Assembly: GCA_963777155.1 (NCBI GenBank)
Contig: CAVZPM010000009.1
Coordinates: 103,160 to 167,159, forward strand
Origin: Candidatus Bathyarchaeota archaeon
Lineage (GTDB): Archaea > Thermoproteota > Bathyarchaeia > Bathyarchaeales > Bathycorpusculaceae
Length of the DNA: 64,000 nt
Reading direction: 5' to 3'
Shown here: positions 42,369-48,211 of the stretch, in pieces
Layout of the letters: each line of letters opens with the position of its first letter
Position numbering within the stretch: the first letter of the stretch is position 1
Made by a program: the position numbers and the translations under genes
Notes under the pieces: generated by a model
The model's input: the letters and a program-made list of their open reading frames with translations, nothing else
Told to the model about the DNA's origin: nothing
The model's database searches: none

Positions 42369-43850
42369 ATAGGCTGCGGTATCTTTGGAGCAATAAATTA
42401 CGATAAACAACCCGTTTTCCCATTCATTTACTGGGGACTACGTGCTCAAAACCACCGAGGACACCAATCACACGGTTTCCTTACAAGCAACAACAACCAA
42501 TTCTATACCTACAAAGCTCTTGATTTGGTCCCAAGACTAAAAACAAATGTCATAAACGAATGGTACGAACGACTACCTGGATCCATAGGCATTGGCAACG
42601 TAAGGTATACAACCTCAGGCAAATGCGACGATGTTTCCATAATAGACGGTACCCAACCAGTCGTCGCTTCTTCAGACGGGATAAAAATTGCCCTCTCGTT
42701 CAACGGTAACATCGTTAATACGTTGCCGCTAAAAAAAGAGATGGATCTAAACTTTTCTGATTTTCTCTACAACTGCGACTCTGATATCGTCTGCCACAAA
42801 ATGCTCCTAGGGCTAAAGCAGGGCAAAACCTTGGAAGCAGCTGCCCGAATTGTTATGGAAAGTTTGGACGGAGCATTCTCTGTAACAGGCATAACTGGCG
42901 ATGGCCAATTCTTTGCCTTCAAAGACTCGCATGGCATAAAGCCCTTGTGCGCTGGACATGACCCTGAAGGTAAAACTTTCGCTTTTTCGTCTGAAACCGT
43001 AAGCTTAGACATGAATAGTTTTGTAAGAGATTTTGAATTAAAACCCGGTGAACTCGTAACTGTCTCAGAAAAGGGATTCAAACGTACCCAAATCATAGAG
43101 AATCCACGTGAAGCCTATTGTTGTTTCGAATATGCTTATTTTGCGAGGCCAGATTCTCGCTTTGATGGTAAATACGTCTATGAAATTCGAGAAGACTTCG
43201 GAAGAAACCTTGTTAAAGAATTCCCAGAAATTGTAAAAGACAGTGACATTATTGTGTCGGTGCCTGAAACCGGCGACGACTCAGCTATGGGCGTTCATGA
43301 AGCGTCGGGTCTAAGGTGGGAACGTGCCTCAAGGCGCCACCGTTACGTGACTGAACGAGCCTTTATACTTCTCAACAATGAACGCTACTCAACCATCGAC
43401 AAAAAAATCAACATACTCGGCAGCAAAGTAGCCGGTAAACGTGTCATAATAACTGAGGACAGCGTTGTCCGAGGCGACACCACTAAAGTCATCATAGAGA
43501 AACTCCGCAAGGCAGGCGCCAAAAAAGTCTACCTCTTCGTGACTTTCCCACGCATCATCGGACCCTGCTTCTATGGTATCGACATGTCCACCTATGGGCA
43601 ACTTATCGGATCCCGAAATAATCCTGAAGAAATTGCCAAAATCATAGGCGCCGACGCCGTATGCTATCAGTCGCTGGAAGGCTTAATCGGTGCCACAGGA
43701 CAAACCGAAAACCAACTCTGCTTAGCCTGCGTGACCGGAAAGTACCCGACGCCGTGCGCGCAGAAAATGTCTGATGTCATGAAAAAACGTTTTCTCGAAG
43801 GATATGAAGAGAAAAACAGGATTTATGAATCAGAAGAAGTCCAGCCGTAA
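42369..43850 (+). CDS. purF: Amidophosphoribosyltransferase
   Basis: Frame extends upstream of the ORF call to IGCGIFG...QNHRGHQSHG (catalytic Cys at 42375); RYTTSG, EDSVVRG and PCFYGID. Confidence 0.93.
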   Translation: MGCGIFGAINYDKQPVFPFIYWGLRAQNHRGHQSHGFLTSNNNQFYTYKALDLVPRLKTNVINEWYERLPGSIGIGNVRYTTSGKCDDVSIIDGTQPVVASSDGIKIALSFNGNIVNTLPLKKEMDLNFSDFLYNCDSDIVCHKMLLGLKQGKTLEAAARIVMESLDGAFSVTGITGDGQFFAFKDSHGIKPLCAGHDPEGKTFAFSSETVSLDMNSFVRDFELKPGELVTVSEKGFKRTQIIENPREAYCCFEYAYFARPDSRFDGKYVYEIREDFGRNLVKEFPEIVKDSDIIVSVPETGDDSAMGVHEASGLRWERASRRHRYVTERAFILLNNERYSTIDKKINILGSKVAGKRVIITEDSVVRGDTTKVIIEKLRKAGAKKVYLFVTFPRIIGPCFYGIDMSTYGQLIGSRNNPEEIAKIIGADAVCYQSLEGLIGATGQTENQLCLACVTGKYPTPCAQKMSDVMKKRFLEGYEEKNRIYESEEVQP

Positions 43851-43900
43851 TCGCTATAAAGCGTTCCTCCACTGATTAGTCAGTTAACGGTGTATCTCGG

Positions 43901-45314
43901 ATGGAGAAGATAGGTGTCTTACTTGGTTTCTTACGGCGCACGAGAAGTCGCCATGGCAGACGCACTTTTAAGAAGCACAAACTATCAAGTAGAACTTTTC
44001 GTCGCTGACAAACAACGTAACCCCTTCAATGCAAAACACGCCACCAAACACAAAGTCATCCCAAACCTTGACATCAATGAAGTCTGCAAGTTTGCCCAAG
44101 AAAACAAGGAAAACTTGGATTTCGTTATGGTTGGCTCCGAGAAACCAATAATCGAAGGTATACGTGACTTAGTCGAGAAACAAACCGGTATACCAGTTAT
44201 CTGCCCCAAAAAAGACTACGCCATCGAAGGAAGCAAAATTGCCCAACGCGTACTCTTTGAGGAGATTGCACCTGAGGCTAACCCTCGTTTTCGGATTTTC
44301 AACCCAGCTGATTACAAGGGCAAGGATGTTAGGCAAGCTGTTTATGAGTGGCTAGACGAGCTCGACAACCAAGCTGTGGTCAAACCTGACAAACCAGCTT
44401 TAGGCAAAGGTGTGGGCGTCTGGGGCGATCACTTCGCAAACCGCGAAGAACTTTTCGAGCATTTCATGTCCAACTTCCAATATGACTCAGTAATTATAGA
44501 GGAAAAAATCGACGGGGAAGAATCTAGCTGCATGGGTTTCTGCGACGGCAAACACTTCATTACTTTGCCCGACACCCGTGACTACAAACGCGCCTTCGAC
44601 GATGATAAAGGTCCAAACACAGGCGGCATGGGCTCATACAAAGACGTCACCGATTACCTGCCGTTCCTCACTGCCGCTGAACGAGAACAAGAGATCACGT
44701 TAGCTGACCGCGTCTTCAAGGGCTGGAAAACAAAAATCTCTGACGATTCAGCACTCCGCGGCGTTCCGCTGTACCTTGCCTTCATGCACACGGGCAAAGG
44801 CATAAAAATCCTTGAAATCAATAGCCGCCCAGGCGATCCTGAAATCATGAACTTGCTCCCAATTATAAAAGACGACTTCGTCGACGTTTGCCTCAAAATG
44901 GTAGATGGTGACTTGAAGGGCATTGCTCTGGAGAAGTCGGCTACAGTGTTGACATACAAGGTTCCAGCGGACTACGGAGGCTACGCTGAAGCACACCCCG
45001 ACAAAGTGGACAAGATCGCAGTCAACACACCAGTTGACCTCACCAAAGCAGAGGCACTTGCCAAAAAGTACGGCGACAAAATCCGCATCTACCCCGGCTC
45101 CATGGAATTGCGCGACGGCAAAAATTATGCGCTCAAATCTCGAGCCATCGGCATCCTAGGCATCGGCGATAGCATCGAGGAAGCACGCCAAATCAGCCAA
45201 GAAGGTGCAAAAGCCATTACTGGCGGCGCACTGTGGAACCGCACCGATGTCGCATCAAAACAACATATAGCAAAAAGCGTTACCCATATGGACAAATTGA
45301 GGCACAAGCCTTGA
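43901..45314 (+). CDS. purD: Phosphoribosylamine--glycine ligase; probable +1 indel near 43922
   Basis: GARE, GKGV, EEKIDGEE, DYKRAFDDDKGPNTGGMG and EINSRPGDPE. ATG 43901 gives MEKIGVL, joining LVSYGARE. Confidence 0.93.
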
Positions 45315-46393: not shown

Positions 46394-46394
46394 A

Positions 46395-47303
46395 ATGGTT
46401 AAAGCTATAATCGAAGATACCTATGCAGAAGCGTTCACGGGGATTTATTGTCGGATAATCGTGACTGCGGACGATGAGCAGACCCTGCGTAAGGCAGCTG
46501 AAGACTCCACAGCGACGCCGTCCGTCGTGATAGGCAGAACTGAAGGCGGCGTAGAAAAATACCTGACCCCAAAAGAAACCCCCGATAAACGCGTGGGCGC
46601 TATCCTGCAGTTCTGGGGAGAAATCAACCCCAAAAAAACATTCGCGGAATCGCTAAAGAAATTCGAAACCGAGCTCTCTTACCGCATCCGCCAAGACATT
46701 CTCGTCAAACCCTTCACCGCAGTCTTCGACGCTTTGCCCAGGGCTGAGGGCAAACTGGACATGATGGAGACCGTAGGGCATTGCGGTGACGGATATGAAT
46801 GGGTCGAAAAACGGTTTGGCAGAGAAGTCATCGTTGTTCCACTAATGGTTCCAGACTTTGTAATTGAACGTTATCTTGGTTATTCGAAGGGTGTTATGGG
46901 CGGCAACTTTTGGATAATGTGCACATCAAAAGCTGCACTCAATGAAGCAGGCGCCAAAGCCTTAAAGGCAATCCACAAAGTGTATGGCGTCGTAACAACC
47001 TTTGACATCTGCTCAGCAGGCTCAAAACCCGAAACCCATTTTCCGAAAATAGGGCCAACAACCAATCACCTCTATTGTCCATCGCTCAAATCGCGCTTAG
47101 GTAAGGAATCGAAGGTTCCAGCAGGCGTAGGATACATAGGCGAAATCGTTTATGACGGCATTTCCTTAGACGCGGTCAAAGAAGCTACAAAGACAGGAAT
47201 CAAAGCCGTTTTAGACGTAGATGGCGTTGTGAGGGTTTCCGCGGGCAACTACGGCGGCAAACTAGGTGAACACAAAATCCAATTAAAAGAGTTGTTTTTA
47301 TGA
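46395..47303 (+). CDS. Formylmethanofuran--tetrahydromethanopterin formyltransferase paralogue (Ftr-like)
   Basis: [31 protein letters not shown] and [10 protein letters not shown]; internal motifs differ from canonical Ftr. Confidence 0.88.
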
Positions 47304-48211
47304 CAAAATTTGACGTAATAGGATTCGGAGCACTCAACATTGACATGCTCTTCAAAGTAGACAAACTTGCATCCGCAGAAGAAGAAAGCTTCATCGAAGA
47401 TTACAAGGAAGCCTGCGGAGGCTCAGCTGCCAACACGATTGTTGGGTTAGCGCGGCTCGGCTGCAAAGTCGGCTTCATCGGTAAAGTCGCTAACGACCGT
47501 GAGGGCAAAATGCAACTCGACTACTTCAAAGCCGAAGGGGTTGACACCAGCGGCATAGTTGAGGCAACCAAGGGCAGAAGCGGTTCAGTGATGGGGTTCG
47601 TAGATAGAAAAGGCGCAAGAGCCCTCTACATTAACTCAGGCGTCAACGACTTTGTGGAGCCTAGGGAAATCAAGTGGGAATATGTTTCTCAAACAAAATT
47701 GCTACACTTATCCTCTTTTGTTGGCGAAAAATCTTTTCGCGCCCAAAAAAAACTTTTAAGTGCGCTGCCTGATGGCGTTGAAATTAGTTTTGACCCTGGC
47801 TCTTTGTATGCACAGAAAGGGTTTGCTGTTATAGAGCCGATGATTCGTAATTCCCACGTTTTTATACCTAATTCACTTGAGCTTGAACAGTTAACGGGCG
47901 AAGAGGATTACCGCAAGGGCGCCGACTATATGATTAGTATGGGCGTAAAAATTGTGGCGGTGAAGCTTGGCAGCAAAGGTTGCTATGTCACTGACGGCGA
48001 AGAAAAGCTTAGTGTGGCGCCCTTCAAAGTAAAAGTCGTTGACACCACAGGAGCCGGCGACGCTTTCGATGCAGGTTTTCTCTATGGTTTACTTCACGAA
48101 AAAAGTCTCTATGAATGTGGCCAACTGGGCAATTTCGTGGCTTCCCGAAGCGTTATGACGATGGGTGCCCGCGCTGGCTTACCCAAAGCCAAGGATTTAG
48201 ATTTGATTTGA
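47300..48211 (+). CDS. PfkB/ribokinase family kinase
   Basis: GGSAANT and [13 protein letters not shown] overlaps the Ftr-like stop (ATGA). Confidence 0.92.

Follow-up and report, generated by a model that had tools for sequence, protein, structure and literature searches.

Formylation of glycinamide ribonucleotide (GAR) to formyl-GAR (FGAR) is the third step of purine biosynthesis, for which PurN uses 10-formyl-tetrahydrofolate and PurT uses formate and ATP. In Methanobacteriales, Archaeoglobi and Methanopyrus, this step has been without an assigned enzyme since at least 2011. Brown 2011 reports neither purN nor purT in two Archaeoglobi, four Methanobacteriales (printed there as 'Methanomicrobiales') and Methanopyrus kandleri, and describes Methanothermobacter thermautotrophicus as a purine prototroph. 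In 2022 the gap was restated for anaerobic methanotrophic archaea of the ANME-1 group, which according to Chadwick 2022 lack PurN and PurT, so that some unidentified enzyme must exist. The same paper describes a divergent formylmethanofuran-tetrahydromethanopterin formyltransferase, Ftr2, in ANME-1, -2a and -2b that clusters with Ftr proteins of Archaeoglobales, M. kandleri and M. marburgensis, states that only Ftr1 has been characterised, and does not connect Ftr2 and the PurN/PurT gap to each other. Literature searches, in a collection that misses most subscription journals, yielded no publication in which Ftr2 is assigned to purine synthesis or tied to GAR formylation. A related arrangement is known from Methanothermobacter, in which EhaS and EhaT, first annotated as Ftr and ribokinase, are co-transcribed with the eha hydrogenase genes (Kaster 2011). 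Here we analyse a 64,000-nucleotide stretch of a Bathyarchaeia genome (GenBank assembly GCA_963777155.1, contig CAVZPM010000009.1, positions 103,160 to 167,159 of the forward strand; hereafter the window), in which a diverged Ftr paralogue, likewise called Ftr2, follows purF and purD together with a HAD-superfamily protein and a PfkB-family kinase. A preliminary description of the window had proposed that this paralogue is a GAR transformylase and had stated that several archaea using tetrahydromethanopterin (H4MPT) lack both PurN and PurT, which Brown 2011 and Chadwick 2022 confirm. Based on comparative evidence, namely which genes are present, their order and distribution and the conservation of catalytic residues, we propose that Ftr2 supplies the formyl group in step three to a glycinamide intermediate in archaea without PurN and PurT, and we put the probability of this reading at roughly 0.65.

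The five genes lie on the plus strand and are closely spaced. They comprise purF (amidophosphoribosyltransferase, 42369-43850), a low-scoring form of purD (GAR synthetase, 43914-45314), the HAD gene (45311-46393), the Ftr2 gene (46395-47303) and the PfkB gene (47300-48211). While purF and purD are separated by 63 bases, the TTG start of the HAD gene overlaps the purD stop as TTGA, the ATG of Ftr2 follows one base past the HAD stop (with an alternative TTG start at 46386), and Ftr2 and PfkB overlap as ATGA. All five open reading frames (ORFs) and these three junctions are found in the sequence as first described, and the junctions couple Ftr2 translationally to purD, HAD and PfkB. PurF contains GATase_6/7 domains and matches TIGR01134 over model positions 1-432 with 317.6 bits (cut-off 350). 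PurD contains GARS_N, GARS_A and GARS_C domains as well as the RPGDPE motif quoted in Brown 2011, and matches TIGR00877 over positions 5-423 with 235.6 bits (cut-off 288). A second gene cluster on the minus strand, purQ (49190-50008), purL (50008-52392), purS (52389-52640) and purM (52698-53786), converges on the first and includes the FGAR-consuming steps; all four proteins score above their NCBIfam equivalog cut-offs. The family matches agree with the earlier assignment of purine steps 1-2 and 4-5 to two convergent operons. Among 80 related Bathyarchaeia loci, Ftr2 is accompanied by HAD in 80, by purD and PfkB in 78 each and by purF in 75, the misses being contig ends and one rearranged locus (L010), and purQ, purL, purS and purM are syntenic in 57-69 of the 80. 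The order purF-purD-HAD-Ftr2-PfkB is not due to chance.

The source genome, a Bathyarchaeia metagenome-assembled genome of 2.29 Mb in 39 contigs, is 90.61% complete, and the relatives closest to the Ftr gene of the window are all labelled Bathyarchaeota or Bathyarchaeia, save two oddly binned records. The absence of purN and purT that had been noted for the window extends to this assembly: it contains no match to the PurN domain PF00551, and its best PurT match reaches 49.6 bits compared to a cut-off of 502. Neither PF00551 nor the PurT model TIGR01142 is matched by any of the five proteins of the operon. The genome has a single purD match and encodes purE, purC, purB, Prs and two tandem PurP genes, the latter adjoining purC and purE (C36:12206-13846). 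PurH and the inosine monophosphate cyclohydrolase PurO were not found in the 90.6% complete genome, and the missing PurH indicates a purine pathway of the folate-free type. From this gene content, aminoimidazole carboxamide ribonucleotide would be formylated from formate by PurP, leaving step three without a known enzyme. The final cyclisation of purine synthesis likewise has no known enzyme in this genome. The separate canonical ftr gene, which the preliminary description had left to be searched for, is present on contig C38 and encodes the canonical motifs TTGFATSVIAASAEAS and RIGQCTLTCPTT (Ftr1). In the assembly, a one-base frameshift close to the AAFNGL motif splits this gene (G000:C38:25525-25945), while it is intact in relatives. 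Either a mistake in the assembly or a true pseudogene could explain the frameshift, and in the latter case Ftr2 would be the sole intact Ftr of this organism.

To place these genes in a wider context, we compared 251 evenly drawn genomes of one archaeal class, the Bathyarchaeia. Ftr matches fell into two groups, an Ftr2 level with at least 262 bits and at least 49% identity and an Ftr1 level with at most 205 bits and at most 45% identity; a single genome (G062), which gave a partial match with 68% identity, was assigned to Ftr2 manually. PurT-like genes were called at E ≤ 1e-60 and all lie below the curated cut-off, and the one that was scanned contains the PurT_C domain. Matches were found at the Ftr2 level in 94 genomes, to PurT in 13, to PF00551 in 101 and to purD in 208. 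Of the purD-bearing genomes, 90 have only Ftr2, 107 only a PurN- or PurT-like gene, one has both (G149) and 10 have neither, counts that overstate independence because the genomes are related. In two of the 10 genomes with neither (G169, G239), the contig stops directly after the HAD gene. Among Bathyarchaeia with purD, Ftr2 and PurN/PurT almost entirely exclude each other, which is the anti-correlation that the preliminary description had suggested looking for. The 43 genomes without purD comprise three with Ftr2, in each case at the end of a contig or next to a stretch of N, 27 with only an Ftr1-level gene (one of which, G207, also has a PF00551 match), five with PF00551 and no Ftr, and eight with none of these.

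Changes within single GTDB families and joint loss with purD are more telling than the raw counts. Family f12 comprises eight members with PurT, two with Ftr2 and one with PF00551, and family f22 three with Ftr2 and two with a PurN-like variant. Furthermore, one genome (G014) lacks purD as well as Ftr2 but retains Ftr1, whereas purD and Ftr2 are both present in the remaining 13 members of its family. The purD scores themselves are bimodal, with about 235-272 bits and thus below the NCBIfam cut-off in most genomes with Ftr2 and HAD and 300-513 bits in genomes with PurN or PurT; exceptions are G031 and G087, which combine a high-scoring purD with Ftr2, and family f16, which has a low-scoring purD and no HAD.

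We also asked which genes directly follow purF and purD in 40 neighbourhoods, which were picked by hand to cover the families and in which ORFs were called, clustered and labelled with Pfam. This position is taken by PurN in nine of 11 PurN-type loci, by PurT in all three loci from the two families with purD-linked PurT, and by HAD-Ftr2-PfkB in 14 loci; three further loci show these genes in a slightly altered arrangement. At a constant place in the operon, one gene has been displaced by a non-homologous one, which suggests that the trio takes over the function of PurN or PurT. Ftr2 would share with these enzymes the net reaction from GAR to FGAR, in addition to the position and the mutual exclusion. 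It is not homologous to either, as the Ftr fold differs from both the PF00551 fold and the ATP-grasp fold; its donor would be formyl-H4MPT or formyl-methanofuran, and, unlike PurN and PurT, it appears to need two partner genes.

A further replacement concerns Ftr2 alone. Four loci carry an unusual PurN-like gene (G034 L098:4860-5705, G002 L124:4923-5822, G010 L183:17799-18635 and G028 L126:5356-6201). Two of them (G034, G028) show the order purF, purD, PurN-like gene, HAD, PfkB and FolD, and in the other two (G010, G002) purD and the PurN-like gene stand apart from the HAD and PfkB-FolD genes. Where Ftr2 has been swapped for this folate-type formyltransferase, HAD and PfkB have been retained. 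The encoded proteins of 278-299 residues match PF00551 only at positions 60-160 and keep the N..H..D catalytic residues, but in all four the SGRGSN of ordinary PurN is replaced by [ST]GRD. In another bathyarchaeal PurN type the loop reads SGSGTN, giving the general form SG(R/S)G(S/T)N. In E. coli PurN, this loop presumably binds the GAR 5'-phosphate, a role on which a literature search returned no text. The variant may be regarded as the putative folate-type counterpart of Ftr2.

Ftr2 belongs to the two-lobe fold family of Ftr and FhcD (PDB 1ftr, 2fhj, 1m5h, 1m5s, 6s6y). Both lobes, FTR and FTR_C, are present (PF01913, 150.3 bits; PF02741, 178.4 bits), and the protein passes the Ftr subfamily model NF002554 (334.4 bits, cut-off 297) but misses the fhcD equivalog TIGR03119 (one_C_fhcD; 230.6 bits, cut-off 292.6). 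The Ftr of Archaeoglobus fulgidus is about 40% identical (182 bits). For phylogenetic analysis, we used 114 sequences, namely full-length representatives of 50% clusters (270-345 residues) and locus genes of at least 250 residues; shorter sequences were left out. The tree separates an Ftr1/FhcD clade (38 sequences, support 99), which includes named clusters from Methanomicrobium, Planctomycetes and Thorarchaeota, from an Ftr2-type clade with the window protein (70 sequences, support 95). Within the latter, a subclade of 33 sequences (support 96) contains the window protein and 27 locus-derived genes, every one of which adjoins HAD, PfkB or purD. A third, deep Ftr-like clade of six sequences (P0173, P0183, P0231, P0199, P0245 and P0250; support 100) has as its named members 'hypothetical proteins' of Promethearchaeota (Asgard).

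Ftr/FhcD and Ftr2 both keep the AGNYGGKLG end motif and the catalytic glutamate (E253 in the numbering of a 305-residue protein), which is present in all 36 pur-linked and all 34 other Ftr2-type sequences and corresponds in the alignment to the glutamate in the YEIVING motif of 1m5h. Glu245 of the M. kandleri Ftr is presumably the equivalent catalytic residue. In FhcD, the corresponding Glu252 is catalytic and stabilises the oxyanion (Hemmann 2019, PMC6926001). Ftr2 presumably shares the chemistry of Ftr/FhcD, in which a formyl group passes between N5 of H4MPT and a primary amine. At the same time, the departures from canonical Ftr motifs that had been noted in the window protein are real and clade-wide: P45, G50, R102, V107, E216, P220, G223, P224 and P252 are common to Ftr2-type sequences, and R51 is typical of the pur-linked ones only (32/36). 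Ftr2 further differs from Ftr/FhcD in that it is a purine-operon gene, co-occurs with a canonical Ftr1, and has a distribution that goes with purD and with the lack of PurN/PurT, and not with Wood-Ljungdahl genes.

Outside the Bathyarchaeia, a sample of 201 Thermoproteota genomes gave an Ftr2-level match only in G342, as a fragment (G342:C129:5527-5979). The stretch is 67% identical to Ftr2 residues 122-274 and forms part of a 471-residue open frame, which may represent a fusion or result from mis-assembly. Protein searches for Ftr2 in named euryarchaea returned unnamed or Bathyarchaeia-dominated matches, with no Methanobacteriales or Archaeoglobus names among them; the named Ftr-homologue clusters come only from Thermoproteota, Aenigmarchaeota, Methanomicrobium, Planctomycetes, Thorarchaeota and Promethearchaeota. 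When metagenomes were scanned with a distant Ftr2 subclade, 55 loci were recovered, 15 of which have HAD, PfkB or purD beside Ftr2, and no eha-type context was recognised among the labelled neighbours of the 55. Ftr2-type genes without pur, HAD or PfkB neighbours occur on contigs L127-L157 and L164-L180. A group of 11 contigs shares a context of an Hsp20-like protein, 600- and 307-residue proteins without Pfam match, Ftr and a transglutaminase-like protein.

The HAD protein (Pfam Hydrolase_3/HAD) has only weak, generic Pfam and NCBIfam matches. It is encoded in 101 of the 251 Bathyarchaeia genomes, comprising all 94 with Ftr2 and seven others, of which two are the contig-end cases G169 and G239 and five belong to families f9 and f22; it is absent from lineages with ordinary PurN or PurT (f19, f30, f18). 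The best sequence match in the PDB is 1y8a, AF1437 of A. fulgidus (E 4.9e-31), its closest solved relative, with an identity of only 26%. The AlphaFold2 model (mean predicted local distance difference test, pLDDT, 94.7) also retrieves 1y8a as the top Foldseek match (TM-score TMt 0.90), followed by SerB, ThrH and MtnX, with TMq around 0.45 for SerB-type phosphoserine phosphatases. A literature search found no paper on AF1437 or its function. Its source organism lacks PurN and PurT and has two Ftr proteins, according to Brown 2011 and Chadwick 2022. The residues D8, E10, S107-T108-S109, K212 and G234-D235..D239 are kept in at least 97% of 105 homologues, and motif 1 reads D8-x-E10, with Glu instead of Asp at position +2. 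With a nucleophilic Asp, four motifs and a Rossmann-like core plus cap, the model suggests a phosphatase-like protein with a phosphoserine-phosphatase-like fold. As a lead without alignment, the Atlas cluster 'energy-converting hydrogenase A subunit R EhaR' gave a feature match of 0.98 to the HAD protein. Other feature-similar Atlas clusters, likewise leads only, come from Thermoplasmatota and bacterial Thermodesulfobacteriota, and the family may reach beyond H4MPT archaea.

The kinase (PF00294, 190.7 bits) keeps the PfkB motifs N13, D15, GGSAAN (40-45), N191, E194 and TGAGD (250-254) in at least 97% of 103 homologues, including NxxE and the catalytic Asp of GAGD. Among NCBIfam models, it scores best with those for ribokinase (172 bits) and for ribose-1-phosphate kinases (about 145-149 bits), yet it stays far below the ribokinase equivalog cut-offs (TIGR02152, 172 bits compared to 299.65; NF008353, 124.9 compared to 341) and is best described as ribokinase-like. 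The PfkB family includes kinases that act on ribosides of the purine pathway, namely adenosine kinase, which accepts aminoimidazole carboxamide riboside, and the aminoimidazole riboside kinase of Salmonella. Both re-phosphorylate dephosphorylated purine intermediates at the 5' position, as salvage activities and not as an obligatory step of de novo synthesis.

Exclusion of PurN/PurT, position in the operon, joint loss with purD and the presence of a separate Ftr1 all support the proposal that Ftr2 is a GAR transformylase, which would make it a third, non-homologous kind of GAR formylation. The enzyme would keep the chemistry of Ftr, with a buried glutamate stabilising the oxyanion, and the glycinamide amine would take the place either of methanofuran, with N5-formyl-H4MPT as donor, or of H4MPT, with formyl-methanofuran as donor. 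Ftr2, the HAD protein and the kinase would operate together as a fixed unit. In the version that we favour, HAD would strip the 5'-phosphate from GAR, Ftr2 would formylate the resulting riboside, and the PfkB kinase would use ATP to restore the phosphate, yielding FGAR for PurLQS. The fixed partnership, the survival of HAD and PfkB when the formyltransferase fold is swapped, and the loss of the loop in the PurN-like variant fit formylation of a riboside. Transferring the formyl moiety from formyl-H4MPT to the furan amine has been given as +4.4 kJ/mol (Hemmann 2019), and spending one ATP, as PurT also does, would make a roughly isoenergetic or slightly uphill transfer irreversible. We regard this detour via the dephosphorylated riboside as tentative and its chances as short of even; which formyl donor and acceptor are used, what HAD and PfkB do, and in which order and direction these two act are all predicted from sequence comparison.

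Several observations weigh against the proposed function. The sampled genomes are related, clear switches between the enzyme types are few (f12, f21 and f22), several genomes are incomplete, and G149 carries both Ftr2 and a PurN/PurT-like gene. Many Ftr2-type genes in metagenomes occur in unrelated contexts, for example beside thioredoxin reductase, rhomboid, GcvH or ThiF. Since Ftr2 passes NF002554 and keeps the catalytic glutamate, it could still use methanofuran and H4MPT. Moreover, Ftr2 is also present in ANME-2a and -2b, which have PurN according to Chadwick 2022. With respect to the riboside route, the closest characterised folds of HAD are phosphoserine phosphatases and not nucleotidases, and the best models of the kinase are ribokinase and ribose-1-phosphate kinase. 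A detour through a phosphatase and a kinase costs ATP and risks a futile cycle, and binding of the GAR phosphate by the N-terminal loop of PurN is presumed.

The partner genes are the point at which the main alternative departs from the riboside route. Ftr2 may formylate GAR directly, with the phosphate in place, while HAD and PfkB are accessory: HAD could feed serine, glycine and one-carbon (C1) metabolism and PfkB ribose-5-phosphate and phosphoribosyl pyrophosphate (PRPP), or the pair could salvage leaked ribosides. The distribution of Ftr2 fits this equally well, and the SerB-type structural neighbours of HAD and the ribokinase and ribose-1-phosphate kinase models of PfkB speak in its favour. 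On the other hand, HAD is confined to genomes with Ftr2 or the PurN-like variant, and this restriction argues against a general supply role because the demand for serine and PRPP would be no lower in the HAD-free lineages f19, f30 and f18. The source genome encodes Prs separately, the kinase falls far below the ribokinase cut-off, and both partners persist when Ftr2 is swapped for a PurN-like gene without the SGxGSN loop. We consider direct formylation with accessory partners possible, if unlikely. It appears improbable that Ftr2 is instead a second formylmethanofuran:H4MPT isoenzyme for anabolic C1 metabolism and that step three is carried out by a PurP paralogue or another formate-using ATP-grasp enzyme. 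The two FTR lobes, the NF002554 match, the conserved glutamate, the tandem PurP genes, the metagenomic Ftr2-type genes without pur neighbours and the frameshifted canonical ftr of the source assembly would all be compatible with such an isoenzyme. Yet Ftr2 falls outside the clade of Methanomicrobium Ftr and bacterial FhcD (support 95-99), is lost together with purD while Ftr1 stays, and excludes PurN and PurT, whose slot it occupies. A second PurP paralogue was considered separately as the enzyme of step three and is a weak candidate: 20 of the 94 Ftr2 genomes have one PurP and three have none. The copy number does not follow the gap either, as two PurP genes occur in four of 13 PurT genomes and in the purD-less G014 and G004.

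Two further explanations move the substrate of Ftr2 away from GAR. The trio could make or recycle another formylated ribosyl compound, for example a cofactor intermediate, with purines or FGAR obtained otherwise. It does occur away from purF and purD (L158), AF1437 has no function on record, and the Ftr- and ribokinase-like EhaS and EhaT end a hydrogenase operon (Kaster 2011). Against this, the rest of the purine pathway is retained, the source genome yielded no other candidate for step three, and the trio disappears along with purD and elsewhere gives way to PurN or PurT in an identical position; we think such a product very improbable. Finally, Ftr2 could formylate free glycine, after which the low-scoring PurD would ligate N-formylglycine to phosphoribosylamine and yield FGAR directly. 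This would suit both the preference of Ftr for a small primary aminomethyl group and the low purD scores of Ftr2 genomes (about 235-272 bits, compared to 300-513 in PurN/PurT genomes), but G031 pairs a high-scoring purD (397 bits) with HAD-Ftr2-PfkB, family f16 has a low-scoring purD without HAD or Ftr2, and HAD and PfkB would be left without a role. We know of no precedent for a formylglycine route and give it hardly any credence.

Formylation of a glycinamide intermediate by Ftr2 would also bear on the euryarchaeal gap. According to Kaster 2011, EhaS and EhaT of Methanothermobacter resemble Ftr and ribokinase, as do Ftr2 and PfkB here. The statement of the preliminary description that the same trio ends the Methanothermobacter eha operon therefore holds for these two proteins, while the identity of EhaR with the HAD protein remains a lead. 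Unlike the window trio, which follows purF-purD, EhaR, EhaS and EhaT follow a membrane hydrogenase operon and have been read as hydrogenase subunits. That H4MPT/methanofuran archaea in general use the HAD-Ftr-PfkB detour, with the trio being EhaR/S/T and the module old enough to be common to Bathyarchaeia, Methanobacteriales, Archaeoglobi and ANME-1, is doubtful at present; the link to EhaRST, Archaeoglobus and Methanopyrus builds on three papers, one PDB match and one Atlas lead.

The trio itself is a real finding; its interpretation is well supported by independent genomic tests, and it probably fills the gap in archaeal purine synthesis noted since 2011. If so, an Ftr-fold GAR formyltransferase would be the third independent invention of this reaction and would couple the synthesis of nucleotides directly with the methanopterin/methanofuran C1 pool. 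Thousands of genes labelled 'formylmethanofuran-H4MPT formyltransferase' or 'ribokinase' would need to be re-annotated. The reading of the Eha operon would change as well; if the trio is indeed EhaR/S/T, its last three 'subunits' would be purine enzymes using formyl-methanofuran replenished by Eha. The detour, if true, would represent a new pathway logic, a three-enzyme route found nowhere else in purine synthesis, with one ATP serving as the ratchet through which a low-potential formyl donor becomes usable. The hypothesis is testable, since the trio is probably present in the cultivable and genetically handled Methanothermobacter and a folate-dependent variant with the PurN-like protein, HAD and PfkB exists.

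Contigs from RNA libraries of two wetland runs touch parts of all five genes of the operon, and one bridges the Ftr2/PfkB junction. They cover small shares of the operon, carry neither level nor strand and could stem from DNA carry-over, and the stretches that they leave bare carry no information; they may be taken as a weak hint of transcription. A scan for sigma-70 type promoters and terminators gave fewer matches than shuffled sequences, the model being unsuited to archaea. The purF gene starts with ATA, with an in-frame TGA 6 nt upstream and the catalytic Cys two codons downstream. ATA is also the start codon in most of the related loci compared (L007-L044), with ATG in L018, L034, L037, L039, L040 and L041, and a conserved GAAGGGAC precedes the purF start in related loci, often with an in-frame stop just before it. 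This apparently conserved non-canonical start on the first gene of the pathway is perhaps a translational throttle. Between PfkB and purQ lies an ORF of 134 residues (48272-48676, minus strand), which has no NCBIfam match, is kept in three of the 80 related loci and is possibly no gene. The genes cdhD and the gamma subunit of acetyl-CoA decarbonylase/synthase (37034-39710) are located 3 kb upstream of purF, separated from it by an ABC transporter on the opposite strand, and purM is followed by a gene for a PQQ-repeat (BamB-like) protein (53930-55252).

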